A DNA stretch of 64,000 bases, from the sequence record NZ_CP067423.1; one strand, given 5' to 3'. The notes beneath the pieces were generated by a model. That model was not told the DNA's origin. It saw only the letters and a list, made by a program, of their open reading frames with translations, and did no database searches. The DNA comes from a plasmid. The position numbers and the translations under genes were made by a program. Shown piece by piece: positions 8,658 to 34,379 of the stretch (its first letter is position 1; every line of letters begins with the position of its first letter).

Positions 8658-8664
8658 GCGCAAA

Positions 8665-14190: not shown

Positions 14191-14211
14191 CGTCCACATC
14201 ATTGGTGCCCC

Positions 14212-16758: not shown

Positions 16759-17061
16759 ACCTTAGCGCAAACAGTAGACGTCAGGCATGTTAGTACTGAT
16801 TAGCGATCGATGGTGATGTTGCTCAAGAGTCACACTAGCTGGGGCGAGGTCCATGCTGCATCTGATGATCATCGGAATTGCCGTGCTCGGCATGATCTGG
16901 AATGTGGACCTGGGCGCCCGGCCCTATGTCGACGTGGCAATGTGGCTTCTGTTCGCCGGGCTGATGTTTCACCTGGGTGACCGGTTCAACACCTGGCTGG
17001 ACCACTGGGCGGTCCGGCCCAGGTGGCGCCGGAACCGCCGCCGCGCAGCTGGACGGCCGGA

Positions 17062-17421
17062 TCACTCCGGCGCGTCGATCCCTCTCCTGGACAAGTAGTC
17101 CCGCAAGGAGCGCAGGAAGAACACGGACTGATGTACCCGGGCACGGCCGCACGCCTCCGCCATGGCAGCGGCCACCTCGGGGGTCAGTCGGATGTGGCGG
17201 GTCCGGATCTTGCGGCCGGGGATGGTGGCAACGAAGATGATCTCCTCGTCACTATCCAGCCGCTCGACCATTGCGCTGACAGCTTCGTCGTAGATGGCCC
17301 GCAGCGGCTGGCACCGCTGCTTCGCATAGGCACGCACGACATTCATCAATTCGTCCGACAACCCCGTCACGCTGGTCTCGGTCGTCGGGTAGGCAGGTCG
17401 TGGCACCGTCGCAATTTCCAT
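17062..17421 (-). CDS. hypothetical protein, last gene of the T4SS-2 operon (possible ribbon-helix-helix type regulator)
   Basis: 119 aa from MEIATVPRP; C-terminal KIRTRHIRLTPEVAAAMAEAC resembles RHH/CopG-like segments. Starts 8 bp after the trbI-like stop. Confidence 0.4.
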   Translation of the reverse strand: MEIATVPRPAYPTTETSVTGLSDELMNVVRAYAKQRCQPLRAIYDEAVSAMVERLDSDEEIIFVATIPGRKIRTRHIRLTPEVAAAMAEACGRARVHQSVFFLRSLRDYLSRRGIDAPE

Positions 17422-17428
17422 TGATTTG

Positions 17429-18562
17429 TTACGTCTCCGGAAAAGGAATATCACTATTTATCTGAATTCGATAGATAGCGCCGGATCTCATCGTCAGTAC
17501 CGGCGGTCTCATTAATTCCCGGTTAACGTATTCACCGCCGACGCCTCGGATGCCCTGAGTGCCGACATTTACCGCGACACCGGCCGGCCCCTCGATCAAT
17601 CCACCCAAGGCGCCGACGAACGACAGCGCTCCCTCGATCAGGATGCCGGTGGCGATGCCGCTCCAGGGGTAGTCGCTCTCCGCCTCGACGCCGCTGGCGC
17701 CGTCCTGGCCGAGCGCCGGCGAACATGCCATCGGCATGATTCCACCCCCCAGCAGGTCGACCCGGGTGGCACACATCTGGACCCTCAGGTCGCCTCGGCT
17801 GACGCCGGTGGCGTTCAGCTCGGTCATGACGGTGCTGCCGGCGGGGATGGCCAGGCACTCCTCGACCTGACCGTTGCCCAGGAAAATCCGTCCAAAGGCG
17901 TCCTCGATGATGATGCCGCGCACCTGGCCGGGCAACTCGGTGCGAACCGGGTTCGGGTTCTGGATCACCAACTCCTCGCCCGCCTTCAGGATGCAGCCGG
18001 TCAGTTCGGGCTGCAGGCTGTGCGGGTGATAAAGGCCCTGGCCACTGCGACCACCGCCCCGAGTGTAGAAGTCAGACTTGGCGTTGCCGCCCTCGCCACC
18101 TGTCCCGGCTGCCACAGGTGTCGCTGCGACATCTCCGCTCCCCTGGGCCATGCTGCTACCGCCCAACAGCGGGTTCATCACGGCGCCCATGTGCTTGTTG
18201 TCGAACGCCAGAACCGACACCTTGAAGTTCCTGACCGGCTGCTTGCGTGGCACTTCGCTTCTCCGCTCCTGCCGGTGTCCGGGAGGCGGCGCTTGCTCGC
18301 CTGTTTCCGGTGGCGGTGTCTCGGCAACTTGCGGCCTGGGTTCGGGCGCCCGCGCGCTGATGGCCGCCGGCTCTAGACCCTTGGGCTCCTCGCGTTCCGA
18401 CTCGGTCGTGATCCCGGCCACGCCGTAGAGCATGGCGAGGACCGCAACGACGGAGGTTCCACCCAACAGCAGGGTCCGCTTGTTGAAGCGCCCGCTGTAT
18501 TCGCGGACAGGCTCCTCGATGCCATCCTCTCCGGGATGACGCTCCTTGTCGTAGCTTCTCAT
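17429..18562 (-). CDS. trbI: T4SS-2 VirB10/TrbI-like protein
   Basis: N-terminal TM (LLLGGTSVVAVLAMLYGVAG), Pro-rich linker (PEPRPQVAETPPPETGEQAPPP), and a C-terminal Gly-rich beta-barrel region. Position follows the trbG-like gene. Confidence 0.75.
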   Translation of the reverse strand: MRSYDKERHPGEDGIEEPVREYSGRFNKRTLLLGGTSVVAVLAMLYGVAGITTESEREEPKGLEPAAISARAPEPRPQVAETPPPETGEQAPPPGHRQERRSEVPRKQPVRNFKVSVLAFDNKHMGAVMNPLLGGSSMAQGSGDVAATPVAAGTGGEGGNAKSDFYTRGGGRSGQGLYHPHSLQPELTGCILKAGEELVIQNPNPVRTELPGQVRGIIIEDAFGRIFLGNGQVEECLAIPAGSTVMTELNATGVSRGDLRVQMCATRVDLLGGGIMPMACSPALGQDGASGVEAESDYPWSGIATGILIEGALSFVGALGGLIEGPAGVAVNVGTQGIRGVGGEYVNRELMRPPVLTMRSGAIYRIQINSDIPFPET

Positions 18563-19563
18563 CGTTCTCTCCGAACGGTCATGACGAGGTCACCGCGCAC
18601 GAACCGGACCTCTCCGGGCAGGCCGCGGATGACGTAGTGGCGAGAGGTGGGGTCGATCCAGAATGAGGGAGCCGATCCCCTGGGCAGGAACGGGACCGGC
18701 CGGCTGGATAGCCGGGCGGGCGGCAGGATGTAGGTATTGACGCCATCGTTGTAGGCCGACCACTCGCCGGGCAGGAATTCTGCAGGGCCGTGATAGACGT
18801 ACCGGGTATCCGAGACGGCGGTCGCGTCAGGCCTATGCACCGTAGCGGCTGTCACCCTCGGTTGATCGGACCCGTAGGTATGCTGGACGACCGGATGATA
18901 TGCTGCGTGGCACTTGCGGGGAGCGGCGTCCTCGGCCGGCTTACAGGACGGAACTACGAGATCGTAGAGGTACACCCTGCTGCCGGTAGCGATGGACAGC
19001 GATGTCCGCTCACCCTGTTTGTAGGCCTTGACGGTGACGATCAACCGGGCGCTGGCGGACTTCCTGTTGTTGGCCCGTTCCCGTTTGGCTCGCATGGACG
19101 TACCGTCGACGCCCCCGGCGGTCACCTCAACCATGAACCACTGCGGGTTTCCCAAGATAGCCTCCGGCGTGGCCTCGCCCGGCTCCAAGTAGAAGAGGGT
19201 CACATCGCTGTCGGTTTCCCCGTCGGCAGATGGGCCGTCCATGATAACCTGCTGTCGGACACCGTTCTGGAACGGGCAGGTCATGATTGATCCCTCGAAG
19301 CTGCAGTCCAGGGCGGTGCGCCGGGACCTCTTGACCATGGCCGCAGTCTTGGCGGCTGGCGACGTGAACTTCTTTTCCGGTTTGGCGGGCCCGGTCGCCA
19401 CACCACCAAAAGGCACGGGCACCTGCAGCGTGCCCGGCCCGGGAGGCTGAACCTCCTGGGCCTGGAGGTAGTCGTAAGTCAGTGACGGAGCATCACCCGA
19501 TGGACCGCCTGCGCAGCCCGCCAACACCACCCCCGCAACCGACATCAGCAGAAACTTACACAT
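18559..19563 (-). CDS. trbG: T4SS-2 VirB9/TrbG-like lipoprotein
   Basis: Lipoprotein signal MCKFLLMSVAGVVLAGC in a 334-aa product. Sits between the trbF-like and trbI-like genes and overlaps the trbI-like start by 4 bp. Confidence 0.7.
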   Translation of the reverse strand: MCKFLLMSVAGVVLAGCAGGPSGDAPSLTYDYLQAQEVQPPGPGTLQVPVPFGGVATGPAKPEKKFTSPAAKTAAMVKRSRRTALDCSFEGSIMTCPFQNGVRQQVIMDGPSADGETDSDVTLFYLEPGEATPEAILGNPQWFMVEVTAGGVDGTSMRAKRERANNRKSASARLIVTVKAYKQGERTSLSIATGSRVYLYDLVVPSCKPAEDAAPRKCHAAYHPVVQHTYGSDQPRVTAATVHRPDATAVSDTRYVYHGPAEFLPGEWSAYNDGVNTYILPPARLSSRPVPFLPRGSAPSFWIDPTSRHYVIRGLPGEVRFVRGDLVMTVRRER

Positions 19564-19628
19564 TTCCAGCCGTCCTCAATCGCGATTTATGGGCTGTATT
19601 ATATCCCATAAACAACCTCAGTTGAGCC

Positions 19629-20321
19629 TCACTCGGTGCCCAGGATTTCATAGTCGGTGATCAGGATGCCCATCGGGTTACAGTCCCGGATCTCGGCCGA
19701 GACGTTGGGGAACCGCTGCACCCGGAACTCCGCCGACTTCGGCACCACGGTCCTGCGCATGCCGTCGTCGAACGTCTCCGACCAAGCCGCGCTGATCCAC
19801 ATGCCCTCGGTGTTGCTGCGCTCGCCAGGGCGGCGCCCCACCCGCACATCTTTCTCCGACAGGATGCGCTTCTGGCCGCGGCGCACCATCTCGACGCCGG
19901 CAGATCGTTCGAACGACCGGTTGGCCTTGGTCGCGGCCGGGCCGGTGACGGAGCAGTACAGGGTGTCAATCATCTCCTGCACCTGGGCCGAGGAGTCGAT
20001 CCGACGCAGCCTGTAGACCAGGCGCTTGACCTCGGCGCGGGCCGCTGCCTCGAACTCATCAGCCTTCAGGTCGCCGGCCCTGATCACCTTGAGGGACGTG
20101 AAGTCGCTGTCGAGCAGAGCGGCGAACACTTCCGGCGGCGCCGCCGCGATCTGTTCGCGCTTGTAGACCTGAAAGCCGTTCAGCCCCAGGCTTGCCGCCA
20201 GGGCGAGGACCAGGGCGCGCAAGGCGCCCCGCTGCTGCTGGGCGAGCCATCCCGGGCGGAACGGCTTGGTTTGCTCGACGGTCGGCTCTGGCTGGGTGCG
20301 GCGCATGCGGATCTTGTCAAA
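19629..20321 (-). CDS. trbF: T4SS-2 VirB8/TrbF-like protein
   Basis: True start MFDKIRMRR (ATG at 20321; upstream ORF-track extension is Arg/His-rich junk). Short cytoplasmic N-terminus, one TM (ALRALVLALAASLGLNGF), then a periplasmic domain. Position after the trbL-like gene. Confidence 0.6.
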   Translation of the reverse strand, partial: FDKIRMRRTQPEPTVEQTKPFRPGWLAQQQRGALRALVLALAASLGLNGFQVYKREQIAAAPPEVFAALLDSDFTSLKVIRAGDLKADEFEAAARAEVKRLVYRLRRIDSSAQVQEMIDTLYCSVTGPAATKANRSFERSAGVEMVRRGQKRILSEKDVRVGRRPGERSNTEGMWISAAWSETFDDGMRRTVVPKSAEFRVQRFPNVSAEIRDCNPMGILITDYEILGTE

Positions 20322-20326
20322 CATTC

Positions 20327-21367
20327 TTATACTCTCCTGGATTGGCCGGCTGCGGCCTTGGCGACGCGGGACCAGTACTGGCTCTGAGCTGCGGCCGATG
20401 CCGTCGTCCTGGCGCCGCTGGCCACCCGTTGGGCGCCCTGGCCGATGCCGCGCCAGGTGCTCGTCATGTGCGTGACCTCGCGCTGCGCCAGGGAGCGCCC
20501 GCGCTCGACCATCGCCCCGGTGCCAGTGACGGACCTTGCGACGTTGCCGATGCCCCGGGTGATGGCCTGGGATGACAGCTGCGGCACGGCACTGATGATG
20601 CCGGCGGAAAGCGTTCGGGACTGCCAGGCCAGCCACGCGATGAACACGGCGAGCAGCACCGCCGGGATGATGTCGTCGAAGACCGGCGTTGGCGGCAGGT
20701 CCATCAGCTCGAATGCCCGCGAACCGATGCCGGCGACCATGGCGATGATGACCAGCTTGACCAGGTTGTTCAGCCAACCCTGGATCGCGCCCTCGGCCAT
20801 GTTCTTCGTGAACGGCGTCACGGCCATCGGCGTGAACAGCAGCATGAACAGGCCGTTGGTCTTATAGCCGATCGCCGTGGTCGCCATCTCGAACACCAGG
20901 AAGGCGAATGCCACGTAGATGAACAACGCCGCCAATTCCAGCATAAGCCTGTCGTCCAGGGTTTTGCCGCATTCGATCCACCCGGAGCACAGGGCCTGCT
21001 TCGTGGCCAGGATCTTGTCGGCCTGACCATCGCCGATGCCCCAGAGGGCGGATGGTGTGAACAGGTCCGCGGTCGCGCCATCGGCACCGACGATCCCGCC
21101 ACCGAGTGCCAGCGCGAAGTTGCCGGCAGCGTCGACGATTTCCTTGGCCGACCAGGCGATGGCCAGGAACAGCCAGAAGATCACGAACATCCCGATCAGG
21201 TCGCCGATGATGTTGTCCATGGCACCGGCCAGCCAGGCGAAGGCCAGCCGGGTGACGGCCCATCCGAACGCCAGGGCGAAGGTCGCCAGCACCACCGGCA
21301 TGATCAGCTCGAAGCCGGCGTCCAGGATGCCTAGGACCATGAAGAAAACTTCATCGACGACGCTCAT
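20327..21367 (-). CDS. trbL: T4SS-2 VirB6/TrbL-like polytopic membrane protein
   Basis: True start MSVVDEVFFMVLGILDAG (ATG at 21367). Five or more hydrophobic helices and a Gly/Ala/Gln-rich C-terminal tail as in TrbL. Confidence 0.75.
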   Translation of the reverse strand: MSVVDEVFFMVLGILDAGFELIMPVVLATFALAFGWAVTRLAFAWLAGAMDNIIGDLIGMFVIFWLFLAIAWSAKEIVDAAGNFALALGGGIVGADGATADLFTPSALWGIGDGQADKILATKQALCSGWIECGKTLDDRLMLELAALFIYVAFAFLVFEMATTAIGYKTNGLFMLLFTPMAVTPFTKNMAEGAIQGWLNNLVKLVIIAMVAGIGSRAFELMDLPPTPVFDDIIPAVLLAVFIAWLAWQSRTLSAGIISAVPQLSSQAITRGIGNVARSVTGTGAMVERGRSLAQREVTHMTSTWRGIGQGAQRVASGARTTASAAAQSQYWSRVAKAAAGQSRRV

Positions 21368-21591
21368 GGCGGATGCTTCTGGGTCAGGGTTTTCGGGTCC
21401 ACCTTGCGCTGGCCGCATTCGGGACAGTCGCCGAGGCCGCGGTACAGCCGATCGATCTTCTCCTGCGCCTGCTGTTCCTGGCGCCTGATTTCTTCCTGCA
21501 TGATCCGTAGCTCCTCGGCCGCAGGGTCGGGGTGCGGGGCGGGGCACAGCACGGTCAGGCCGATGCCGAGCAGGATTGCGCAGATGTCCAT
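21364..21591 (-). CDS. small secreted/lipoprotein-like protein in the trbK (entry-exclusion) slot
   Basis: 75 aa with signal-like MDICAILLGIGLTVLC followed by a charged coiled segment. Sits between the trbJ-like and trbL-like genes with overlapping stop/start. Confidence 0.4.
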   Translation of the reverse strand: MDICAILLGIGLTVLCPAPHPDPAAEELRIMQEEIRRQEQQAQEKIDRLYRGLGDCPECGQRKVDPKTLTQKHPP

Positions 21592-21600
21592 GTCGTCACC

Positions 21601-23544
21601 TCACTGGAAAAGAGCGCGACCGGTAGGAGTGCGGGGCTCAAGGGATCCCGGCCCATAGAGGCGCCGGACCTTCTGGTCCGCGATGATCTCCTGGACGCGC
21701 TGCTCCTCGGTCGTCCGGAGCATCGCCGTCGCCATCGCCGCATCACCGGCCTGCCTGGCGGCATCAACAGCGATCTGGGTGCGCAGCATCTGGGTCTGCG
21801 CCTGGATAGCCTGAGTCTGGCCGACTGCTCCCTGACTCAGCCCCAGGACCTCGTCAGACATGTCGAGAGCAGCATCGATGCTGGCCTGGGCCGCTGCCTG
21901 GGTGCGGGCAGCCTCGCGCGTGGCGTCGCTGGTCCTGGTGCGGACCTCGTCCATGTGCAGTCCGGCATCCTCGAAGGTCCAGCTTTCGGGCATGCCCTCC
22001 TGGTAGCGTTCCTGCATCACACCATCAGCATCGACTCCATAGAGATCGGGATCAATGCTGCCCAGCTGACGCCGGGCTGCCTCTTCGACGGTCGAGGCAC
22101 CGGCTGCGGCACTGGCACCAAGCCTCTGCGTCATCTTTCGCTGTTCGGCGAGCTGGCGCTGCTGGGCGGCGAGTTGCTTGCCCAGGCACAGGTTGCCGGC
22201 AATCGCGGTCATCTGCTGGGCGATCTGCGCCGTCAGCGTCGCCCGACCGCCCGAGAAAATCCCGCTGACCACCGATGCGGCGCCGCCGATCATCGCGCCG
22301 CCGATGTTGCACTTCACGGTCTCGACAGCGCTGTCGACGTAGTCCTCGATCGGCTGCAGCACGGTATCGACGGCGTCGCCGATGGTGTTGTTGACCGCGC
22401 TGGTCACCTGGCCAGTGGCCCGGTTGATGATCCGGTTGCCCTCACGCACGATGATGCCGCCGGAGACCAGGTCGTTCAGCCGGCGCACAGCACCGGCCTC
22501 GCCCCGTTCCACCGCCCGCCAGAACTGGTCGTCCGTGTTGTAGAAGTTGTCCGCCAAGCCGTCGACGTTGCGTTCAAACTGGCTATCCGTGCTGCCGTCC
22601 CAGGCCGAGGCTCCGGTGCCGCCGGCCACCCGGTTGTTTTCGATGGTGTTGTTCCGGCTGGTGATCGAGCCCGGCATATGGCTGTTCTGGCCGTTGCTGA
22701 TACCACCGCTGATGTTGTTGCCCTCGATGCGGTTGTTCTCGGCCGAGACCACCCGCACGTCGCCCCGGATGTCGTTGCCGGTGACGACGCTGTTCTCCGC
22801 CTCGTTATCCTGGAACTCGTCGGGGAACTGGTCCATCCGATTCAGCCGGCTGTTACCGTAGCCACCGACCGACACCGCCGTGTCGGCATCAATGTCGATG
22901 GTGTTGTTCACCAGCTGCACGCCGTCGCTGCCGGCCTTCCAGGTGATGCCTGCGAATCCGGCCTTGCCTTTGATCGTATTCCCTTCGTATCGGACGTTCC
23001 TGACCGAGACGTTGTCGATGGCCTCCTGGCGCCAGTGGCCGTCGATCGTATTGCCGGCCACCAGGACGGACTGCTGGTCGGTCGGGCTCATGTTGAACAG
23101 TTTGAAGCCGTCCTGCCCTTCGCCGGTAATCAGGTTGTTGGTGACCTTGAGGTTACCGATGTTCCCGTAAGACCCCCACAGCTTGAAGCCGCCGACGTCA
23201 CCGCCGCTTGGTGCGTCGGCGATCACGTGGAAACCGTCGATCTCCACGTTGGTGATGCGGTTGGCCTGCACGGCGGCCTGGTTGCGGCTGCCCCGGATCA
23301 CCGCGGCACCTTTGCCGTCGACAGAGAAGATTCGAATGGGTGCGCCCGGATCGCCGTGCAGGTTGCTCAGGTCCAGGCTGCCGTTATAGGTGCCGCTGTA
23401 GACGGCGACGGTGTCGCCCGCCCTGGCCGAACGGATCTTGGCCTCCAGGTTGTCTCCCGGCCTGACCTCGATCGTGGCAGCCAGCGCCGGTGTGCCGAGC
23501 ACCGTTCCCGCAAGCAACATCCCCGCGAAAACTCCTCGCCACAT
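21601..23544 (-). CDS. 647-aa secreted fusion protein: N-terminal right-handed parallel beta-helix (PbH1-type repeats) + C-terminal TrbJ/VirB5-like helical domain
   Basis: Start MWRGVFAGMLLAGTVLGTPALA (signal peptide). Repeated NNxI/GNxI turns (VTNNLITGEG, VAGNTIDGH, YEGNTIKGK, LVNNTIDID, IEGNNISGG, SRNNTIENNRVAGG). C-terminal ~270 aa are Q/A-rich helical. Occupies the trbJ slot between trbE and trbK/trbL. Confidence 0.7.
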   Translation of the reverse strand: MWRGVFAGMLLAGTVLGTPALAATIEVRPGDNLEAKIRSARAGDTVAVYSGTYNGSLDLSNLHGDPGAPIRIFSVDGKGAAVIRGSRNQAAVQANRITNVEIDGFHVIADAPSGGDVGGFKLWGSYGNIGNLKVTNNLITGEGQDGFKLFNMSPTDQQSVLVAGNTIDGHWRQEAIDNVSVRNVRYEGNTIKGKAGFAGITWKAGSDGVQLVNNTIDIDADTAVSVGGYGNSRLNRMDQFPDEFQDNEAENSVVTGNDIRGDVRVVSAENNRIEGNNISGGISNGQNSHMPGSITSRNNTIENNRVAGGTGASAWDGSTDSQFERNVDGLADNFYNTDDQFWRAVERGEAGAVRRLNDLVSGGIIVREGNRIINRATGQVTSAVNNTIGDAVDTVLQPIEDYVDSAVETVKCNIGGAMIGGAASVVSGIFSGGRATLTAQIAQQMTAIAGNLCLGKQLAAQQRQLAEQRKMTQRLGASAAAGASTVEEAARRQLGSIDPDLYGVDADGVMQERYQEGMPESWTFEDAGLHMDEVRTRTSDATREAARTQAAAQASIDAALDMSDEVLGLSQGAVGQTQAIQAQTQMLRTQIAVDAARQAGDAAMATAMLRTTEEQRVQEIIADQKVRRLYGPGSLEPRTPTGRALFQ

Positions 23545-23825
23545 CACACCTCTCCTTTGTGCCGTATACAGGATATGAGAGATCCCATAATTGCCCGCCC
23601 CGCATAGCCCACCGCGATCAGCGCTCCACCGAGGCTCACCAGCAGCGTCAATGACCGCCACGGCTGGGGCAGGTCGGCGGTTAACCACCTGACCAGCGGC
23701 ACCCCTTCGGTCAGGATCAGGACCCCGATGCCGAGAAGGGCCAGGGAGCCGGCGACGCCGATGGCCAACCCGGGAAGCAGGTAAACCATGGACCGTTTCA
23801 GGATCTCGGCGGGATACCCGTTCAT
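23544..23825 (-). CDS. small two-TM membrane protein of unknown function between trbE-like and trbJ-like genes
   Basis: 93 aa with two hydrophobic helices (LLPGLAIGVAGSLALLGIGVLIL; LTLLVSLGGALIAVGYAG), translationally coupled on both sides. Confidence 0.4.
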   Translation of the reverse strand: MNGYPAEILKRSMVYLLPGLAIGVAGSLALLGIGVLILTEGVPLVRWLTADLPQPWRSLTLLVSLGGALIAVGYAGRAIMGSLISCIRHKGEV

Positions 23826-26275
23826 TCTGCGGCCCTCAGTATGGTTTCGGGTTCATCGCCCAGGAGCGGACCGACGTCGACGCCGTGCTCTGCCATCCAA
23901 CTGGTCAGGAAGTCGCCGCCCCGGCGCTCGACCTGGCGGGCGTGCTGGTAATGGTGATCGTCGGTCTGGAGCACCATGGCCGAGGCGATCGGGGAGCCGA
24001 GGTCGAAGGTCACCACCGCTTTCCCGACGCCGGGCCGGTGGACGAAGTATTCACCGGCCTGCGCCATGCCAGCGATCACCTCGGCATCGTGCTGGCTCAG
24101 TTTCAGCTCTCCCAGGACCTGCAGACCCTCGGTGGTGGTCACCGCGGTGTCCTGCACGTAGATTTGGGTCGGGCACGAATTGAGGATGATGTGCGAGATG
24201 TCCGACCTGGACAGGTCGAGGACCGACTGGGTGGCGAAGACAACCTGGGTCTTGAGCTTGCGGTATGTCCGGAGACCCCAGCCAAGCCCCTTCACGAACC
24301 CGCCCGCGACATAGGCACTGGCCTCGTCGAGCTGGAGCATCAGCGGCCGGCGCGAGCTGGACAGCCGCATGATGTGCCGCCACAGGTAGGAGATCAGGGC
24401 CGGCGCCGCCACGGCCTCGTCGTCGTCCGTGATGGCTGAAAGTTCAAAGTTGATCCAGTCGGCCTCGTAACTGCGATTGTCAACGGCATCGAAGATGTAG
24501 CCGAGCGGACCGTCGTGAGTGTAGATCCGCATCGCCTTGGCCGCGTCCTCCGACGGCACGTTCAGGCAGAACGTTGTCATGGTCCGGTCGTCCGGTGGCA
24601 TCCGCGCCATGATCCGGAGCGCAGCGTCGACTGCCTGGGAGATGTCGGAGTTGTCGGCCGCGGCGCCGATCTGCTGGCGGATGCGCGCCAGCGTCCAGGA
24701 ATGCGCCCAGGCTCTGTCGGTAGGCTTGTCGATCTGGCGGTAAGGCTGCACGCCGCAACCCTGCTCGCCGATGTTGAAGGTCACCCCACCAACCAGCTTG
24801 GCCGCGACATAGCCGGAGCGGCCGGACTCGACCCGCATGACACGACCACCGGGGACGGCGGTGATGTGCCCGAGGCCCAGGGCATTGAGACCTGATGTTT
24901 TGCCGCCGCCCGTGCCGCCGCACAGGAAGCAGTGCCGGGTGGCCCCGTCGATGTGCAGCGACAACGCGAACCGGCTGGTCGAGCTGGTCCGGCCATGGAG
25001 GAGGATCGGACTCTTGGTTGACCCTAGATCTCCGGCCCAGGCCTTGGTCAGCGGCGCGGTGACCGCGGCGGCCAGCAGGTTGACGCCGGGTCGCACGAAG
25101 TCGACGTCGGTCTTGCCGGGGATCGCCCCCAGGACGCAGTCGTGAGTCGTCAGGTCGTTGATCTCGACCCCGAACCCGTGGTCGAGCAGGAATTCCTCAA
25201 TCTTGCCGGCCTGCGTCTTCGCCTCGCCCCGGTCCTCGTGGTAGACCAGGACGTTGTCCGTGGTCTGGCACCGGAGCACGCCGCCCCGCTGCAACTCCAG
25301 CAGCATGGCGTCGGTTTCCTCCAGGGTGACGGTCGCAGCCTTGTTGTTCAGCGGGCTCAACGCATCCTTCTGGAACTGGCGCATCACCTGGAGCAGCATG
25401 CTTTCCTGGGTCAGCGCCGCCTTGCGGACCAGCCACTCCAGCTCACGCACGGACTCGGCCTTGGACTGGGTCCGGATACGCTTAACCCGACGGATGCGGT
25501 AGCCCAGCTCGGACAGGCCGTTGAACGTGTCGTTACCGAAGTCCAGGGCGCCGGCTTCTATGCTCCGCGGATAGGTGTTGATCTGGACGGACCGCACGTT
25601 GAGGCGGTTGTGCTCATGACCCAGCCACAGCGGGCGACCGCCGGTCAGGGGGCTGTCGATCAGCTGCGGCGCCAGGAACTCGTAAGGATCGATCGAGATC
25701 GGCCTGTCGTTGACGGAGATGGTCGACCGCAGGTACGTGGCTAGGTCATCGCCTTCCAGAACCTCCGCCCCCACGAAGCGCAGGAGTGCGGCCATCCGGT
25801 CCACCGACCGGACGTAGTCGTCGAACATCGGGCCGTAATCGCCCCGGGTCTCGCCCGGCTCCGGCAACAGCAGGGCATTACGCAGCCTCACCGCCAGCCC
25901 GGCCGGTGGATTGTGCCGTACGGAAACATAATGCCGGCTGCCGAAGTGAGTGCCGTCGCCATGCACCGCGGTCCGGTCGATACCGTAGAGGCGGGCCGCT
26001 CGGTTCTCCGTCGTCTGAACCTGGATACCAGGGAGCGGACCACGCCGCTCCTCGACCCAGATCCACTTTCCACCGCCCAGGGTCTGCAAGGCCACCGCGA
26101 ACCGGGCAGCATGGCGCAAACGCTGCTCATCGCTGGCCGTGGACAGGTCCGGTGGTGCCAGTGCCATGGCCATCAGCCAGCCGAACTGGCTGCACGCCAC
26201 GACGCGCGGCCGACCCGCATGCGGCAGCATGGTCAGCCAGGGCACCTCGTCGCGCAGGTAACGCTTCCTTGTCAT
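23822..26275 (-). CDS. trbE: T4SS-2 VirB4/TrbE-like ATPase
   Basis: Walker A CGGTGGGKTSGL and Walker B-like MLQLDEASAY in an ~817-aa product starting MTRKRYLRDEVPW. Follows the trbD-like gene with 1-bp overlap. Confidence 0.9.
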   Translation of the reverse strand: MTRKRYLRDEVPWLTMLPHAGRPRVVACSQFGWLMAMALAPPDLSTASDEQRLRHAARFAVALQTLGGGKWIWVEERRGPLPGIQVQTTENRAARLYGIDRTAVHGDGTHFGSRHYVSVRHNPPAGLAVRLRNALLLPEPGETRGDYGPMFDDYVRSVDRMAALLRFVGAEVLEGDDLATYLRSTISVNDRPISIDPYEFLAPQLIDSPLTGGRPLWLGHEHNRLNVRSVQINTYPRSIEAGALDFGNDTFNGLSELGYRIRRVKRIRTQSKAESVRELEWLVRKAALTQESMLLQVMRQFQKDALSPLNNKAATVTLEETDAMLLELQRGGVLRCQTTDNVLVYHEDRGEAKTQAGKIEEFLLDHGFGVEINDLTTHDCVLGAIPGKTDVDFVRPGVNLLAAAVTAPLTKAWAGDLGSTKSPILLHGRTSSTSRFALSLHIDGATRHCFLCGGTGGGKTSGLNALGLGHITAVPGGRVMRVESGRSGYVAAKLVGGVTFNIGEQGCGVQPYRQIDKPTDRAWAHSWTLARIRQQIGAAADNSDISQAVDAALRIMARMPPDDRTMTTFCLNVPSEDAAKAMRIYTHDGPLGYIFDAVDNRSYEADWINFELSAITDDDEAVAAPALISYLWRHIMRLSSSRRPLMLQLDEASAYVAGGFVKGLGWGLRTYRKLKTQVVFATQSVLDLSRSDISHIILNSCPTQIYVQDTAVTTTEGLQVLGELKLSQHDAEVIAGMAQAGEYFVHRPGVGKAVVTFDLGSPIASAMVLQTDDHHYQHARQVERRGGDFLTSWMAEHGVDVGPLLGDEPETILRAAE

Positions 26276-26276
26276 G

Positions 26277-26582
26277 TCAGGTCTCCAAGTCAGTGCGACG
26301 GCGCAGAGCGCGCACGGCAAAGCGCAAGAGGTTTTCCTGATAGAAGGGATTGTCCTTGGCCAGCATGACGCCGCCGTACCACATCGCGCCCGTGCCCAGG
26401 CACAGCACGACGATCACGGAGATGATGTTCCGGCCGCTGGGGGTGACGGCATACATCGTGAAAACCGTCCCGCAGATCCACCACAGGGCGATTACCAGGA
26501 CCGTCGAGAGTCGGCAGCTCCCCGGCATGTAAGGATGCTGTCCACTCCGTCGGATCTCGATGCCGTAATCCAGCGACGCCAT
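26277..26582 (-). CDS. trbD: T4SS-2 VirB3/TrbD-like protein
   Basis: 101 aa with two TMs (LSTVLVIALWWICGTVFTMYAV; IISVIVVLCLGTGAMWYGGVML), between the pilin and trbE-like genes. Confidence 0.65.
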   Translation of the reverse strand: MASLDYGIEIRRSGQHPYMPGSCRLSTVLVIALWWICGTVFTMYAVTPSGRNIISVIVVLCLGTGAMWYGGVMLAKDNPFYQENLLRFAVRALRRRTDLET

Positions 26583-26884
26583 CAGGCCCCGCCGAGGCCC
26601 AGGACGTATTCGGCCAGCAGCGGCACGCCACCGATGAAGGCGCCGATCGCGGCACCGACGATGGCCTTGCCGATGCCGCGGCCGGGATCTCCGACCATGG
26701 CACCGAGCAGGGCGCCGATGATGGCCAGGCCGACAATCATCAACCCGACGTTCTGGATCATGAAGTCCCAGATGTCCTGGGTGAACGTCTCGATGCCGTT
26801 GGCAGGGATCTGCGCCAGGGCAGGGCCGGCGAAAGCAGTCAGGCCCAGGACGATGGCGGCGGAAAGGGACTGGTTCGTCTTCAT
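26582..26884 (-). CDS. trbC: T4SS-2 VirB2/TrbC-like pilin precursor
   Basis: 100 aa: signal peptide MKTNQSLSAAIVLGLTAFAGPALA, then two hydrophobic segments with Gly-rich packing (GLMIVGLAIIGALLGAMVG...AIVGAAIGAFIGGV). Confidence 0.7.
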   Translation of the reverse strand: MKTNQSLSAAIVLGLTAFAGPALAQIPANGIETFTQDIWDFMIQNVGLMIVGLAIIGALLGAMVGDPGRGIGKAIVGAAIGAFIGGVPLLAEYVLGLGGA

Positions 26885-27960
26885 TGGATCAACTCCGAAG
26901 AAGAATTGCCGGATATATTATAGCCTGTATTGAGTTGATGGGGGACATCAACACGGGTCAGTCTGTAACCTGTGGTTTCATCGCAGCCACCGGGCCGGAA
27001 CACCCCGACGATGTCGCGGCCACCACCCGCCCGGCGCCTAATCCAAATGATGCGCTGCAGGGTCTTCATCAGCACGCGACGCTGCGGCACCGGGTCGATG
27101 CCGGCCTGCGCCACCATCTGCTCGATGCGGTCAAAGAAATCGGCCGGGTTGCTTGCGTGCAATGTCACCAACCCGCCGGTATGGCCGGTGTACTGGGCCA
27201 TGATGAAAACCCAGAGCACGCCATCGCGGGCTTCGCCGAGGATGATGCGGTCAGGCCGGCAGCGCAGCGCATCCTTCAGAAGATCCGCCATGTCCAGGCC
27301 GATGCTGGACAGGCGCAGCACGTCGGCCACGCACGGAAACTGCATCTCCGGCGTATCCTCCAGCGTGACCAGACGATCCGGCTGCACCGCCGGATGATTG
27401 GCCATGCTGGTCAGGAGACTGGTCTTGCCGCTGCCGGTCTCGCCGAACACCGCGACTGTCAGCTTGTTCGCCAAGGCCGCGGCGATGCAGTCCATGGTCG
27501 GCAGGCCCTGGCCGATCGTGTCGGTCTCCTCTTGGGCGAAGTGGACCTCGCGACCCGCGATCGGCGCCACGCCGTCGGCGACGTAGTCCCCAAAAGACCG
27601 GATGGTCCTGGGCAGGAAGCGGAGAACCACATAAGGGCCACCCACGGCTCGGGGCGGGATGCCGCCCTGGAACCGGATCTGCCCGGGAAGATCGGCGGCG
27701 AAGCTCAACCGTCCCCTGCCCTCGGCCACGATGCCGGCGAAGCGCGCGGCCAGGGTCACGATCTGCTGGCGCCGGTCAGCATCAAACTGGGTCTCAAGCC
27801 GGCGCTTGCCGACGGAGCCATAGACGAAGGCTCGACCATCCGGGTTGATGGCGATGTCCTCGGTACCGGCCTGCGCTGCCAGGGTCTGGATTTCGGCGCC
27901 CAGAGCATTGTTCAGCAGGCGTTCGGCCTCGCCCCGCTCACGATCGGAAAGCGGGATCAT
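26881..27960 (-). CDS. trbB: T4SS-2 VirB11/TrbB-like ATPase
   Basis: Walker A VFGETGSGKTSLL, then RIILGEARDG and VTLHASN motifs, in a 359-aa product. Confidence 0.9.
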   Translation of the reverse strand: MIPLSDRERGEAERLLNNALGAEIQTLAAQAGTEDIAINPDGRAFVYGSVGKRRLETQFDADRRQQIVTLAARFAGIVAEGRGRLSFAADLPGQIRFQGGIPPRAVGGPYVVLRFLPRTIRSFGDYVADGVAPIAGREVHFAQEETDTIGQGLPTMDCIAAALANKLTVAVFGETGSGKTSLLTSMANHPAVQPDRLVTLEDTPEMQFPCVADVLRLSSIGLDMADLLKDALRCRPDRIILGEARDGVLWVFIMAQYTGHTGGLVTLHASNPADFFDRIEQMVAQAGIDPVPQRRVLMKTLQRIIWIRRRAGGGRDIVGVFRPGGCDETTGYRLTRVDVPHQLNTGYNISGNSSSELIQ

Positions 27961-28373
27961 TTTGCCGCCTCCATTTTCTGGACGAGATCCTGCACCTGGC
28001 GCACGTGATCGGCCTGGGTGACGGGATGCTGCTCCGGCGGCAGGTAGCGCAGCCGTGTCTCGAAGTTGGCGATTGCCAGCAGGGTGCGGATCTGGTGAGC
28101 CATGCGGTCGATCTGTCCGCGCATCTCGACCAGGGTGGCGGCGACCGCGTCCGACTGATCGGCAGCCGCGTCAACCTTGCCCATGGCGATGTTGATGCAC
28201 TGCTCGACGATGGCGTTGCGCGACCACTTGCCTTGCATCTGCGCCTCGATCCAGGCGTCCTGCTCCTCGGCGAACAGCACCTCCCGGGCCTTCCGGCCGA
28301 CGTAGCGGTTGCCCCTCGGGCGTCGTGCCCGGCGCTCTGCCGCCGTCGCGAGTACATTCGTGTCCATCATCAC
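27957..28373 (-). CDS. hypothetical 138-aa protein between T4CP and trbB-like genes (possible relaxosome/transfer accessory)
   Basis: Protein-like composition (MMMDTNVLATAAERRARRPRGNRYVGRKAREVLFAEEQDAWIEAQ...). Tightly packed: the stop overlaps the trbB start, and the start is 2 bp after the T4CP stop. Confidence 0.45.
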   Translation of the reverse strand: MMMDTNVLATAAERRARRPRGNRYVGRKAREVLFAEEQDAWIEAQMQGKWSRNAIVEQCINIAMGKVDAAADQSDAVAATLVEMRGQIDRMAHQIRTLLAIANFETRLRYLPPEQHPVTQADHVRQVQDLVQKMEAAK

Positions 28374-28374
28374 C

Positions 28375-30235
28375 TCACATCATCAGCGGAACATCGTCGG
28401 CCGGTATCGGGGTTGGTGTCTGGATGGGCTCGGGCACGGGGTCTGGTTTTGCCGCCGGCTTCACCGGCACCTTGGCCTTGAACCTCTTGTTCTTCTTCTC
28501 CTCGGCCTTCCCGGGCTCAGGTGCTGGACCCCGTACCGACGGTTCCTCGAAGCAAATGGCGTCCCACAGGTTTCGGGCACCCACCTCGAGCGGCAGATCC
28601 AGGAAGGCACCCTTGTCGTCGCGCACCGGCAGGAACTCGACGTCTAGCGGTAACCAGGACCTTGGCGCTGGGTTGACCAGCGAGCGCCAGCTGCTCAGCG
28701 GCGGCCGGCTGACTTTGATCGGCTTGGTGTAGCCGCAGACCAGGACGTCGTCCTCCGACAGCCGCAACACCGCCTCGGTCGGCAGGATCGGCTTGCGCAC
28801 CCGGGACCGTGTCAGCCCGGCGCCCCGGCGCTCGCCGCCGGCGCCGTAACTGGCGTTGTCGGACTCTGCGGTGACCTCGACGAAACCGATCGCCTTCGAC
28901 AGCTTCTCGGCCTCGCCGCTGTCGAACGGGCGCAGGGCGACCAGCCGGCTATTGTTGAAGATCAGCGACTTCTCGCCGTAGATCACCGCCAGAACGCCGT
29001 CGGACTGGGCGCCCAGCATGGCCCGGCAGTGGTAGGAGCGCATGTCGGCCATGGCGCCCTCGATGGCGTCGACCTTGCCGAACCGGTTGAACTCGTCAAG
29101 CGCGAAAAGCATGCAGTGACGCTTCCACCGGGCACCGATCCTGTCCTGGTGCCCCATGATCGCGTTCAGGATCTGTGACGTCATCATGCGGACCAGCGGC
29201 GCCAGCCTGGCCGAGTGCTCCGGCGGCAGATGCAGGTTCAGCAGCACCGGGTTCGGCCCGCACATCAGGTCTTCCGGCGAGAACTCGCACGACGATGTTG
29301 CAGAGTCGACGCACGGGTCGGCGTAGACGTTCAGATAGCTATCTATCGTTGCCAGGATGCTACCGACGTAGCGTTCGTTGTTGTTCTGCCAGATCTTCCG
29401 GGCCGCACTGGCGATCTCCTCGCGGAGGATCGGGTTCGGGTGCTGCTGGCGCATCATCCGGTCGCCGCCCTCCCGGCCGGTGGCGTGGAAGCGCCGCAAG
29501 CCGCCCAGGTTCCGTTCCTTCGGGTCGCCGAAGTTGGCCAGGAACATCATCTCGGCCGTGGCGAGCGCCTTGGCGTTCTCGTCCCAGATCGGCTCTTTTG
29601 CCTGGCTCGTGTCGGTATGCGGGAGCAGGGCAGCGAGGTTCTGGAACCCGGCGATCTGATCCACTCCAGTTCCGACGCGGGCCATGGGATTGTACCTGAC
29701 GCTGTCCGGCAGGGTCGGCGCGAACAGCAGGTTATGCCGCCACCGGCTGGAACCCTGGAGCAGCAGCCAAAAGTCACCCTTGCGGTCATGCACGATGGCG
29801 CTGCCCCGCCAGGTCCGCATCAGCGTCGGCAGGAAGAACGAGGCGGTCTTGCCCGACCCTGTCGGACCGGTAACCCGAACATGCATCTGGTGCCGGTCAA
29901 TCAGCAGGCGCCCGTCTGCCGTCGCTCCGACGGTGATCCCGCCAGGGTCGGCTATCACCGGCCGGTTCTCGAAATCCATCTCGAGATTCCCCTCTTCATC
30001 GGTTTGATCAGCCCGAACTGCACCAGGTCGGCCTCGGTTGCCCAGGCCGCCTCGACCTGGTCCTCCGTGCCCCGCATTCGCGGATTGAGCAGCCGGCTGG
30101 TGATCCGGGTGGCGGCGATCTTCACGACCACGACGAGACCGACCATGCCGACCAGCAGCCCCAGCCCGGCCGGAACGAACCACCATTCATGCTGGGCGAC
30201 CTGCGCCCAGACCCACCATTCGCGGATCACTCCAG
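28375..30235 (-). CDS. VirD4/TraG-family type IV coupling protein, interrupted by a frameshift near 30005 (possible pseudogene or sequencing error)
   Basis: N-terminal part (GTG ~30235, frame A: TM helix WWFVPAGLGLLVGMVGLVVVV, then AAWATEADLVQFGLIK like the GSARWA motif) stops at 29955. Frame B continues GNLEMDFENRPVIADPGG...Walker A VTGPTGSGKTAS...to 28375. Confidence 0.75.
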
Positions 30236-30850
30236 CCCTCCCTCTCGGCCGTGCGACCGCCCGGCCTGGCGGACCGGCACGCCGGTGTTCGGGTCCAGCC
30301 CCATCTGCTGCCGGCGCTCCTGGACCGCCTTGCACTTCGCGTCCGGGTCGACTCCGCGCTCTGCCCGGTATCCCAGATGCTGGGTCGCAACCTCCCTCGC
30401 CCTGGCCCGGAGGCCATGCGAGACGTACCCACTCGACAGGCGTAAATTCCTGTCTTCCACCCTGGCCCGCATCACCACGTGAGTGTGCGGATGGTCGGTG
30501 TCCCAGTGCTGGACGGCCATCCATTCGAGCTTCACGCCGCGCCGCTGTTCGTCCTCGGTCAGCAGATCCTTTTCCACCTTGCCCATGACCTCGCGGGTGT
30601 AGGCCTCCAGGTCGAGCCGGTGTCCTTCCTCCGGGGAGAGGATGAATTTGTAGTACCTGTTGTCCTCGCCCCAGCCATGGACCTGGGCAAACATCTCATC
30701 CCGGGTCGCCGGATTGCCGTCTTGGTCGATCCCCTTCAGTTCGCCCTCGCGGGTGATGTACCTGATGTTGTCCCGAAGCGACCGTTTGAACGCGGGCTGC
30801 CCGTTGTGCGCCGCCCGGTACTTCACCTTGACCATGACCCGCTGCGCGAA
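30227..30850 (-). CDS. VirD2-like (MOBP-type) relaxase domain protein, ~205 aa
   Basis: Motif I region QRVMVKVKYRAAH...IRYITREGELKG resembles the VirD2 and RP4 TraI N-termini. Motif III HWDTDHPHTHVV (HxDxDxxHxH). Stop TGA overlaps the GTG start of the T4CP (GTGA). The ORF-track extension to 31084 looks non-homologous. Confidence 0.65.
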   Translation of the reverse strand, partial: FAQRVMVKVKYRAAHNGQPAFKRSLRDNIRYITREGELKGIDQDGNPATRDEMFAQVHGWGEDNRYYKFILSPEEGHRLDLEAYTREVMGKVEKDLLTEDEQRRGVKLEWMAVQHWDTDHPHTHVVMRARVEDRNLRLSSGYVSHGLRARAREVATQHLGYRAERGVDPDAKCKAVQERRQQMGLDPNTGVPVRQAGRSHGREGGLE

Positions 30851-31141
30851 CCGCCCAGGCTTGACGGTCCACCGACCGCGCACCGTGACGCCCGTCGCCG
30901 GCATCGGCACCCGGCGCACCGCCTGGGCCTCTGGCGTCTTGTGATGGCGCACAGGTCGTAGTTGCAGCCCGGCCGGGCGGCCCAGCGTCACCGGAGCTCG
31001 CATCAGCGGCGCCTCGGCAACCGGCGCCGCCTCCTCGATCCGATCCCGTCCATTCACTCCCTCCCCGAGAATGATATACATCATATCCCAATTTCACGGC
31101 AGAACGAAGCCCGGTACAGACCGGAGCACGACCCGGAACAT

Positions 31142-31177
31142 CTCCGGATGTCCGGAGCAGCAGATCCGGCGCAGGAT
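31142..31177 (-). promoter_or_regulatory. candidate oriT nick region: IR ctccggaTGtccggag followed by ATCCTGC core on minus strand
   Basis: Minus strand reads cgcaATCCTGCgcc, matching the MOBP/IncP/T-border nick core ATCCTG|C. An adjacent 7-bp-arm inverted repeat lies at 31142-31157. Located ~90 bp upstream of the relaxase ORF. Confidence 0.3.
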
Positions 31178-32226
31178 TGCGTAGAAGATCAAAGGTTTAT
31201 CATGGCTCCCGTAGGGAGTTATCTTGCACCCCCGCTTCGCACCCCTGATCCGGCGTTGCCCGGTCCCCTTTCGACCAGAGGGCCTAAAGATGTCACAGGG
31301 CGCCTATGGCTGTGCGATCGGTAATCCAGGGCCGGAAGAGCTGTCTCGTCGCAGGAAGCGCCCTCCACTGCGAGAGGGGCCACTGAGCTCCCGACGCCGA
31401 ACTCATGGACAATTATGAGTAGCGGGAAACTTCCGTCAGAATGGCTGAGGTCCCGCGTGTCGGATTTGCCGGAGCGATGATGTACGCTGCGGCCGCTGTG
31501 GCTGTCCGGCGTTTTACGATTTGGAGAGAGTTGCTCGACGTCGCTTGCAGGAGAACTTGCCGGCGTTTCTCTGGAGCACCTTGCGGATTTAACATTACCA
31601 GCAGTCGATACTGAGTATAATTAACATTACCGCATTGTGCTGAACTCTCACATCTATAGGCAGGGTCATTCACATCAGCATGTCTATCGATATCACTGGG
31701 GCAGATTGCCAGCCGACGGACCCTGTTCAAGCTTCAGCCATACTATGTAGCGTGGTATGTAGAAAAGGCTCGAAGTTGGGATTGTTGGGCCGGTGAATCC
31801 GTAGAGCTTACAGCTCGGAGGCCTTGCATGTGTTGATTGATGTAATCGACCTTGCCCATCTGATGATGCCGGTCCTGCGTCAGATGAACAGCACCGACAG
31901 GCAGAAAGCTGCCGACGACAAGGATCATAATCCTGATTACGCTGAACAGGCATGGTTTTGGGTGGGGCCGATACTCGTCAGTTTCAGCAAGCCAACCACG
32001 TTTGTTACCTGTGTTGCCCGGTTAGCTGGACGCGCCCTCGGCGAACGGGCGGGTGAAGCCGACGCCTCTCGCAGGCGGACCAGTACTGCGCCGGACAACA
32101 CGGCCCGCGCGGTAGCGGGTTGTGAATATAGAGGGCAGGCAGGACGCTGACGGATGATCCGGATCCGGGCAGACATGCGCCTCAAACCGGGTCAAACCGG
32201 GACGGGAGCAGTTCCGGTTGAGAGGA

Positions 32227-34170: not shown

Positions 34171-34379
34171 TGCCGTCGGGTCGCCCGGATCCCCCGCCCG
34201 GCGCACGCTCCATTCCGGGGCGCCGGCTGTGGCGAGTGTAGCCCGGGTGCAACCCCACCCGTGAATTCGCATCATGGATGCGGGCCGGCGAGCGCGTTTG
34301 CCTTGTCACCCGGCCGAGCCAGTGGCAAGGGGAAAGGACCTGCCGATGGGGGCAGCCTATTCGAGGGGGATTTGCAGTC

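Follow-up and report, generated by a model that had tools for sequence, protein, structure and literature searches.

A rare, divergent trb-like conjugation locus with a putative two-piece coupling protein and an apparently exchanged beta-helix module on its TrbJ-position protein

A 64,000-nucleotide (nt) stretch of plasmid DNA (sequence record NZ_CP067423.1; hereafter, the window) contains three type IV secretion system (T4SS) loci, the second of which, a set of trb-type conjugation genes on the minus strand (17062-31084; locus 2), is the focus of this study. Our results suggest that locus 2 is an intact, self-contained conjugative transfer module at ~17.06-31.23 kb with a coupling protein in two pieces and, presumably, transfer activity, a reading to which we assign a probability of about 0.72. 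Judging by its sequences, the locus belongs to a rare, deeply divergent trb-like lineage of the mating-pair formation type T (MPF-T), known so far only from Skermanella plasmids and contigs and from a few metagenome contigs. Mosaic plasmids with several T4SSs are ordinary in these bacteria; what the present locus adds is a poorly recognized trb-like lineage, a fissioned coupling protein, and a swapped polysaccharide lyase-like head on a VirB5-type protein.

The lineage is sparsely represented in the databases. Among 5.8 billion proteins, only 14 TrbE relatives were found at E < 1e-20, and those with an organism name all come from Skermanella. A scan of 185,579 species-representative genomes returned one true relative, S. 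aerolata KACC 11604 (L013), which carries the closest T4SS (TrbE 85% identical, TrbL 80%) in the same architecture. This 15-16-gene architecture is further shared with four metagenome contigs (L003-L006) at 92-100% amino acid (aa) identity, with three remoter contigs (L009, L011, and L012; TrbE 37%) and with the Skermanella sp. TT6 plasmid pTT6-4 (L001; TrbE 26%, rest of the T4SS 25-30%). The block that unites locus 2 with its flanks, from ~15.96 to beyond 32.3 kb, is common to the four metagenome assemblies. Hallmarks of the lineage are a 285-aa relaxase, a split coupling protein, a lipoprotein TrbG without TrbH, and a 647-aa TrbJ with a polysaccharide lyase-like beta-helix in its first 465 residues.

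The genes of locus 2 were listed from open reading frames (ORFs), GC content by codon position and family scans, and their coordinates were refined against the related loci. There are 16 intact ORFs without internal stops, in the order relaxase, small transmembrane (TM) ORF, type IV coupling protein (T4CP), ORF, trbB-C-D-E, ORF, trbJ-like, trbK-position ORF, trbL-F-G-I, ORF. GC content at third codon positions is of coding type throughout (0.76-0.88). Four of the ORFs conserved in the lineage (91, 137, 93, and 119 aa) were absent from the first-pass annotation. In the order of transcription, the features are as follows:

31219-31226, minus strand: candidate core motif of the origin of transfer (oriT), CAAGATAA, 135 nt upstream of the relaxase start
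30227-31084, minus strand: short relaxase, 285 aa, distantly RlxS/MOBP-like (Pfam Relaxase 29 bits, gathering score 24.6)
29955-30230, minus strand: 91-aa ORF with a single TM helix and a 'WAT' motif, the putative membrane anchor of the coupling protein as a separate gene
28375-29979, minus strand: T4CP body, 534 aa, without the N-terminal TM domain (Pfam T4SS-DNA_transf 158 bits, TrwB_AAD_bind, TraG-D_C)
27957-28370, minus strand: 137-aa ORF of unassigned function at the position of a trbA/copG-type regulator, conserved in L003 (100%) and S. aerolata (72%)
26881-27960, minus strand: TrbB/VirB11-type ATPase, 359 aa (Pfam T2SSE 86 bits; NCBIfam TrbB_P 144 bits, cut-off 305)
26582-26884, minus strand: TrbC/VirB2 pilin, 100 aa, with a signal peptide (Pfam TrbC 26.2 bits, slightly under the gathering score of 27.9)
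26277-26582, minus strand: TrbD/VirB3-position protein, 101 aa (position, size, hydrophobic segments; present in all related loci)
23822-26275, minus strand: TrbE/VirB4 ATPase, 817 aa (NCBIfam TrbE PRK13873 304 bits, cut-off 1020)
23544-23825, minus strand: lineage-specific 93-aa membrane protein with two hydrophobic segments, between trbE and trbJ
21601-23544, minus strand: beta-helix-TrbJ fusion, 647 aa (AlphaFold2 (AF2) model, Foldseek, family-level TrbJ matches)
22155-23528, minus strand: segment of the preceding gene, codons ~5-463, apparently exchanged recently (DNA identity pattern)
21364-21591, minus strand: 75-aa ORF at the TrbK/entry-exclusion position (72-75-aa ORFs at this position in L003, L009, L011, and L013)
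20327-21367, minus strand: TrbL/VirB6, 346 aa (Pfam TrbL 51.6 bits; start refined)
19629-20324, minus strand: TrbF/VirB8-like protein, 231 aa (Pfam VirB8 18.7 bits, under the gathering score of 23.2; conserved position and size)
18559-19563, minus strand: TrbG/VirB9, 334 aa (Pfam CagX 37 bits)
17429-18562, minus strand: TrbI/VirB10, 377 aa (Pfam TrbI 51.9 bits)
17062-17421, minus strand: 119-aa ORF closing the operon, conserved in L003 (100%) and S. aerolata (69%)

Thus, the complete trb-type set with its own relaxase and coupling protein that the first-pass annotation had described is all there. Every member of the set VirB2, B3, B4, B5, B6, B8, B9, B10, and B11 can be assigned, VirB3 by position and hydrophobic segments alone and VirB8 by a match below the gathering score alone. 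TrbH/VirB7 and TraF were not found in the family scans; TrbG has a lipobox of its own (VLAGC) at the N-terminus, and LAGC is also present in TrbG of S. aerolata. The same scans returned no match for the 101-aa TrbD-position protein or for the 75-, 93-, 119-, and 137-aa ORFs, and Pfam searches of the small ORFs at E values up to 1 gave no meaningful match. Nevertheless, the small ORFs recur in the relatives: the 93-aa protein has counterparts in L003 (97%) and S. aerolata (47%); L009 and L011 both have an ORF of 91-92 aa in its place and one of 110 aa in place of the 137-aa ORF.

Locus 2 is not a duplicate of either of the other two loci of the window, as judged from the low identities between paralogues. 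The comparison with locus 1, for which we used the complete Ti-type set of an Aminobacter plasmid matching the left end of the window at 100% identity, gave 32% identity for TrbB, 23% for TrbE, 24% for TrbG, and 21% for TrbI (BLASTP); the single pair that aligns between locus 2 and locus 3 is VirB11 (28%). This agrees with the earlier view that locus 2 does not consist of copies of the first set. The scores of the proteins lie far under the curated NCBIfam cut-offs, not only for TrbB and TrbE (see above) but also for TrbG_Ti (22 bits, cut-off 181), TrbL_P (23 bits, cut-off 129), and RlxS (94 bits, cut-off 850), and the TrbJ models have no match to the TrbJ-position protein of the window. When PLSDB (72,556 plasmids) was searched by megablast with the entire locus, one 1.3-kb segment was matched and nothing else.

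Viewed against the Trb systems of Ti and IncP plasmids and of Tn4371-ICEMlSym elements, locus 2 presents a mixture of familiar and unfamiliar traits. The order trbB-C-D-E-J-(K)-L-F-G-I is the same, the relaxase and traG-type T4CP genes lie directly upstream as in Tn4371-like elements, and the best NCBIfam models are those of the P-type systems (TrbE PRK13873, TrbB_P, IncP-type TraG, RlxS). However, all scores are 3-10 times under the curated cut-offs and identity to the Ti-type set is 21-32%. Furthermore, locus 2 is devoid of trbH and traF, contains the extra ORFs of 91, 137, 93, and 119 aa, and encodes a split T4CP, a 285-aa relaxase, and a 647-aa TrbJ. The gene order, initially described as exactly that of Ti/Tn4371, is thus matched only approximately, given the missing trbH, the extra ORFs (one of them, of 93 aa, between trbE and trbJ), the split T4CP, and the long trbJ.

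The divergence has practical consequences. The TrbE, relaxase, and TrbJ homologues of pTT6-4 are annotated as 'hypothetical protein' (PGAP), and the same holds for the VirB4/TrbE gene of the plasmid pSR-4 (L008). Each of the two plasmids encodes a full T4SS along with a relaxase and a T4CP, and in PLSDB MOB-suite types both as 'non-mobilizable'. Standard tools thus miss the lineage, and plasmid mobility in soil Rhodospirillales is under-called.

The coupling protein of locus 2 is distributed over two genes. The 91-aa ORF carries the TM helix and the '...AAWATEADL..GL' motif with which a VirD4/TraG protein normally starts, and the ATPase body starts in a different frame, at 'MDFENRPVIADPGGITVG'; this is not the single polypeptide of VirD4/TraG proteins, in which an N-terminal TM segment is followed by nucleotide-binding and all-alpha domains. 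The same division is found across the lineage. The 26 T4CP homologues, the most distant at 44% identity, all have lengths of 534-606 aa, and in the eight that were read the DPGGI motif is the start and the TM domain is lacking (8/8). A separate TM ORF is called in all related loci; in L009 and L011, it shares 30-35% identity with the 91-aa ORF, and the W, R, and WA residues do not vary. Because both the split and the upstream TM ORF are conserved lineage-wide, the arrangement points to an old gene fission and not to a frameshift; the hypothesis of a frameshifted T4CP was rejected given that the homologues all start at the same motif and the upstream ORF is conserved.

A comparable division of labor has been proposed for the plasmid pIP501, in which TraI would anchor the TraJ coupling protein (PMC12857230). 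As in locus 2, TraJ is a coupling ATPase without a membrane anchor, and its gene adjoins that of a small membrane protein proposed to act as a tether (PMC12857230). By contrast, pIP501 belongs to a Gram-positive system, and in locus 2 the small ORF also has the 'WAT' motif of the T4CP itself. Since this motif sits on the small ORF, the arrangement in locus 2 looks like a true gene fission. The split protein represents a natural experiment on the anchoring and recruitment of T4CPs.

The relaxase is similarly unusual. It is matched by RlxS only over model positions 71-243 of 654 and does not have the full-length, ~650-aa architecture of that family. The catalytic motifs are kept, namely, the Tyr of VKVKY and the histidine triad HWDTDHPHTH (HxDxxxPHxH), and the homologues in all relatives are of similar size (256-285 aa). 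Upstream of the relaxase gene lies a 1.1-kb non-coding stretch that is 97% conserved in the close copies. The 8-mer CAAGATAA occurs once in the window and once each in L003, L009, and L011, where it precedes the relaxase gene by 145-199 nt, and the equivalent place in pTT6-4 reads CAAGTTAA. We consider this site a lead to a possible oriT. The IncP-type nic consensus YATCCTGY was rejected as an oriT marker, with 7 matches against 7.3 expected and 0 upstream of the relaxase; ATCCTGC upstream of the relaxase was at chance level.

Directly upstream of the relaxase/oriT region is an Rpn/YhgA-like gene encoding a PD-(D/E)XK 'transposase_31' and DUF4351 protein (32227-34275, minus strand; the real gene is probably ~32227-33210). 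L003-L006 have the same neighbor, as does S. aerolata L011 (6859-7845; 75-92% aa identity), and the gene may belong to the transfer module.

The split T4CP, with its TM/'WAT' segment and ATPase body in different frames, the relaxase of 285 aa as opposed to ~650 aa for RlxS, and the failure to find TrbH/VirB7 and TraF could be taken to mean that locus 2 is a relic, silent or in decay, with a frameshifted coupling protein, a truncated relaxase, and a lost trbH. We deem this highly improbable and largely refuted, as every relative has a split T4CP and a short relaxase, down to 44% identity for the T4CP and 30-41% for the relaxase, and as TrbG possesses its own lipobox. Moreover, in the comparison with a metagenome copy, the ratio of nonsynonymous to synonymous substitution rates (dN/dS) is 0.07-0.39 in all 12 genes tested; locus 2 evolves under purifying selection. 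Further inactivating lesions, the presence of which would have spoken for decay, were not found.

The most distinctive product of locus 2 is the 647-aa protein in the TrbJ position. It starts with a signal peptide, followed by a right-handed beta-helix (residues ~23-340), a helical linker, a Cys/Gly-rich hydrophobic segment, and a putative TrbJ/VirB5 domain (~405-647). The invariant segment reads Cys...Gly-rich...GGRAT...Q..M..AGNLC...QL..Q.R, and the helical C-terminal domain follows it. The beta-helix was modeled by AF2 with a predicted local distance difference test (pLDDT) score of ~90 over residues 21-300. Its best Foldseek match is the alginate lyase 6kfn (E 1.4e-6), and further matches include the PL6 chondroitinase B and alginate lyases, PL31, the AlgE4 epimerase, RbmB, and phage tailspikes, with E values from 1.4e-6 to 4e-4 for 6kfn, 7o78, 8bwk, 1dbg, and 2pyh. 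The N-terminal part accordingly has the parallel beta-helix fold of PL6, PL9, PL31, and AlgE. Among relatives, there are matches to Pel9A-like, Beta_helix, NosD, and Chondroitinase B of Pfam, and the family alignment contains the invariant residues D145/K148 and K203.

Family-level sequence comparison and gene position, and not structure, support the membership of the C-terminal domain in the VirB5 family. Five of the eight aligned members of the domain family match NCBIfam TrbJ PRK13874 (best E 3.9e-11). A profile of the domain retrieved 253 proteins from 1.84 billion representatives, many of them ~235-265 aa long; of eight short matches tested (~235-270 aa), four match TrbJ models. Among the 150 best matches (50%-identity clusters), ~21 are 546-682 aa long with the domain at the C-terminus, and all of those tested (10/10) have N-terminal Beta_helix, NosD, or Chondroitinase B domains. 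Finally, the C-terminal part of the window protein is 60% identical to a plain 267-aa TrbJ-position protein of S. aerolata, which has no beta-helix and no Pfam match. When modeled separately, the C-terminal domain comes out as entirely helical (mean pLDDT 70), and a sequence-profile search of PDB with the TrbJ domain returned no VirB5.

Fusions of this kind appear to be recurrent and are seen with two components of the stalk, VirB5 or VirB6. In a JGI metagenome contig (3300045996; L007, 4219-6570), a 783-aa TrbL/VirB6 protein consists of a signal peptide, a beta-helix 44% identical to that of the window, a Pro-rich linker, and a TrbL domain. Homologous beta-helices of Skermanella are also found joined to RTX repeats. 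In the searchable literature, we found no paper on a fusion of VirB5/TrbJ with a beta-helix or lyase.

The pattern of DNA identity indicates that the beta-helix module was exchanged recently. No part of locus 2 except positions 22155-23528 gave a megablast match (>80% identity) to a PLSDB plasmid; this segment is 81-87% identical to three Skermanella plasmids. Identity to the pTT6-4 protein is 88% over residues 1-465 (86% at the DNA level) and 14% over residues 466-647, with one breakpoint falling just past the conserved QLAAQQR stretch. The T4SS of pTT6-4, which has the 88%-identical module, is just 26% identical in TrbE, whereas the closest T4SS, that of S. aerolata (TrbE 85%), has a plain TrbJ. 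In P0009, a different beta-helix (34% identity) is carried on a 78%-identical linker. Given these mosaic identities with pTT6-4, S. aerolata, and P0009, the N-terminal module was most likely exchanged by recombination, in what appears to be a recent domain swap.

How might locus 2 work? As in P-type systems, the relaxase would nick near the conserved CAAGATAA site. The T4CP body, tethered by the separately encoded 91-aa TM/'WAT' peptide, would then pass the relaxase-DNA complex to the channel, in which a lipidated TrbG/VirB9 may replace the missing TrbH/VirB7. In model systems, the VirB5 pentamer caps the VirB6 stalk and is carried outward as the pilus tip, where it is an adhesin thought to mediate recognition of the recipient (PMC12624023; PMC12857230). 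Because VirB5 moves from the top of the stalk to the tip of the pilus in these systems, the beta-helix of locus 2 may be displayed with the TrbJ pentamer, and could bind or cleave surface or envelope polysaccharides during mating. It would represent an exchangeable specificity module, acquired recently from a T4SS no closer to locus 2 than other trb systems are, and the swap pattern suggests a module akin to a phage tailspike. Tentatively, and at odds that we place well below even, we propose that this conjugative family arms its VirB5/TrbJ tip pentamer with a tailspike-like beta-helix that binds or depolymerizes polysaccharides, is traded among unrelated T4SSs of one host genus, and sets which recipients, or which capsule or exopolysaccharide (EPS) types, can be reached. 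If true, this would be a conjugation analogue of the swapping of receptor-binding proteins among phages, and the fusion offers a testable handle on how the pilus tip recognizes or penetrates the surface of the recipient.

Comparison with known proteins is instructive in this respect. As with the VirB5/TrbJ tip proteins TraC of pKM101, TrwJ of R388, and CagL, the gene lies between those of VirB4 and VirB6, and the C-terminal ~240 aa are predicted to be helical and are a putative homologue of TrbJ at the family level; unlike them, the protein has ~400 extra N-terminal residues that form the beta-helix and the helical linker. With tailspikes and depolymerases, PL6/PL31 lyases, and AlgE epimerases, it shares the right-handed beta-helix and the modular exchange onto a conserved attachment domain, and the RTX-fused Skermanella homologues resemble AlgE. 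In contrast to these, the beta-helix of locus 2 is attached to a conjugation protein and not to a virion or a secreted enzyme.

Several results weigh against display at a VirB5-type tip. In the full-length model, pLDDT is below 50 over residues 307-518, making the geometry of the fusion unreliable. The C-terminal domain of the window protein gives no match to a TrbJ model when taken alone, the alignment of the TrbJ domain against one Ti-type TrbJ sequence was not significant (hhalign), and the matches of the C-terminal model to TrwJ/VirB5 (8rtd, 8rt9) and CagL (3zcj) were non-significant (Foldseek E ~1.5-1.9, ranks 9-15). In addition, the beta-helix on the N-terminus of TrbL/VirB6 in L007 would sit in the periplasm at the base of the stalk and not at the pilus tip. 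The last point is in line with an alternative in which the beta-helix acts inside the donor envelope, as a periplasmic 'space-maker' that cuts or binds glycans during assembly of the T4SS and pilus and replaces VirB1. Indeed, no SLT/VirB1 gene was found in locus 2 by the family scans, and VirB5 sits on VirB6 in the periplasm before the pilus grows (PMC12624023). Nevertheless, we consider such a role unlikely: L007 has its own SLT gene besides the fusion, the best structural matches are lyases and epimerases of acidic exopolysaccharides and phage tailspikes and not peptidoglycan enzymes, and a determinant of host-surface specificity would be expected to show just such recent exchange among unrelated T4SSs within a genus.

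Outside locus 2, the window is a patchwork, the principal features of which are as follows:

1-2950, minus strand: locus 1, comprising trbE' (cut by the window edge), trbD (656-955), trbC (948-1319), trbB (1309-2292), and traI (2321-2950)
1-10380: block 100.0% identical to Aminobacter plasmids (pMET2 type), with trbE'-D-C-B, traI, a traR-like gene, fic, and repABC
10379-11490: IS5-family element (DDE_Tnp_1_5, DDE_Tnp_1), with 32-nt terminal inverted repeats at 10379-10410 and 11459-11490
13020-15144: second replication/partition module, with ParA (13020-13652, minus strand; Pfam CbiA/VirC1) and an RPA-type initiator (14212-15144, plus strand; RPA 187 bits)
49017-49985, plus strand: IS6-family copy 1, 969 bp (DDE_Tnp_IS240 151 bits), identical to copy 2
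57698-58666, plus strand: IS6-family copy 2, identical to copy 1 and abutting the truncated virB8
58661-64000, plus strand: locus 3 remnant, with a virB8 fragment (58661-59080), VirB9 (to 60102), VirB10 (60102-61217), VirB11 (to 62278), and VirD4 (62275 to the window end) (Pfam, tblastn)

The ORF listing and family scans confirmed the three T4SS loci at the places where they had been reported. In locus 1, TrbB (556 bits, cut-off 499) and TraI (AHL-synthase equivalog, 271 bits, cut-off 250) both pass the NCBIfam thresholds. A search of the window, including the traI flank, for tra boxes with the ATGTGCAGATCTGCACAT consensus (<=3 mismatches) yielded 0 matches, and the sequence between traI and traR did not yield a palindrome. 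The proteins of locus 3 are 58-77% identical to those of S. rosea plasmid pSR-4 (tblastn). Its virB8 fragment corresponds to residues 114-252 of the S. rosea homologue, the first 113 codons being cut at the IS6 end, and virB1-7, present in the full pSR-4 locus, are absent. With virB8 cut and virB1-7 missing, locus 3 is a remnant in the window. Of the three systems reported on one replicon, locus 2 is indeed of another lineage than the other two, but within the window locus 3 is truncated and not a working third system.

As to how these parts came together, the cointegration suggested earlier is favored by two replication modules in the window (repABC at 6.3-10.1 kb; RPA-type rep and ParA at 13.0-15.1 kb), by the IS5-family left inverted repeat that coincides with the end of the Aminobacter-identical block, and by the two direct IS6 copies; the linkage itself depends on the assembly. 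The 1-10380 block is identical to plasmids of three Aminobacter strains (Hyphomicrobiales) and the identity stops at 10380; the sequence beyond resembles Skermanella or Azospirillum (Rhodospirillales) at 73-92%, and past the IS5-family element lies the gene of an IS110-family transposase that shares 89-92% identity with copies from Skermanella. These data fit, and suggest, a cointegrate of Aminobacter-type and Skermanella-type plasmid segments mediated by insertion sequences (ISs), with the linkage of the three loci taken from the assembly. As in IS26/IS6 cointegrates and pseudo-compound transposons, two identical 969-bp direct copies surround 7.7 kb, one of them truncating virB8. Unlike in an IS26-type cointegrate, the expected split 8-bp target duplication is not seen: no 8-bp target-site duplication was found in any pairing of the IS6 flanks, and for this reason the IS6 events cannot be reconstructed from the window.

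A point that weighs against such a history is that a search with the 37-mer across the 10380 junction had no match among GTDB representative genomes or JGI metagenome contigs. There is some chance, if a rather small one, that the contig is an assembly chimera joined at IS repeats, in which case three T4SSs on one replicon would be an artefact and locus 2 still real. The abrupt switch between sequences of two bacterial orders, exactly at the IS5-family inverted repeat, the absence of the junction from the databases, and the two IS6 copies without a pattern of target-site duplication would all be compatible with a chimera. Conversely, genuine cointegrates and IS-mediated deletions also end at IS termini, and two replication modules and many transposition genes in 64 kb are typical of real mosaic plasmids. 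The independent presence of ~15.96-32.3 kb in four metagenome assemblies shows that part to be authentic. If the assembly is right, the window represents a cross-order mosaic in which IS elements joined Aminobacter-type and Skermanella-type plasmid modules.

Several other features were noted along the window. Between the quorum-sensing genes and repABC are a Fic-family gene (4118-5347) and a WGR-domain gene (~5508-5768). The second replicon module (12395-15144; DUF3102 protein, ParA, RPA-type initiator) adjoins locus 2 and is absent from the metagenome copies, similarity to which ends at ~15956. Just downstream of locus 2 lies a pair of 89-nt inverted repeats (16299-16387 and 16673-16761; 78% complementary), possibly a small mobile or regulatory repeat; the region around and between the arms (~16.2-16.8 kb) matches pTT6-4 (L001 ~5000-5225) at ~83% DNA identity.

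The region at 32-58 kb is rich in genes of mobile elements, including the Rpn/YhgA-like gene, IS630-like and ISAzo13-type transposases, tniQ-B-A, two resolvases, and the two IS6 copies. The ISAzo13-type transposase gene (43384-44616) is next to the second resolvase gene (42374-43387), and a Tn5053/Tn402-like tniQ-tniB-tniA module (44622-48104, minus strand) adjoins the resolvase gene overlapped by an IS6 copy, the left copy covering the last ~50 nt of this ORF (48249-49067). The 7.7 kb between the IS6 copies encode a 1109-aa DUF7146/Toprim protein (50166-53495) and a CHASE4-GGDEF-EAL protein (54289-56499). An RTX (HemolysinCabind) protein is encoded at 34776-35789, and a similar RTX gene lies upstream of the T4SS in L009. 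Finally, a PEP-CTERM gene (36265-37428; DUF3466-like) contains five repeats of ~141 nt (47 aa) with 63-76% mutual identity.

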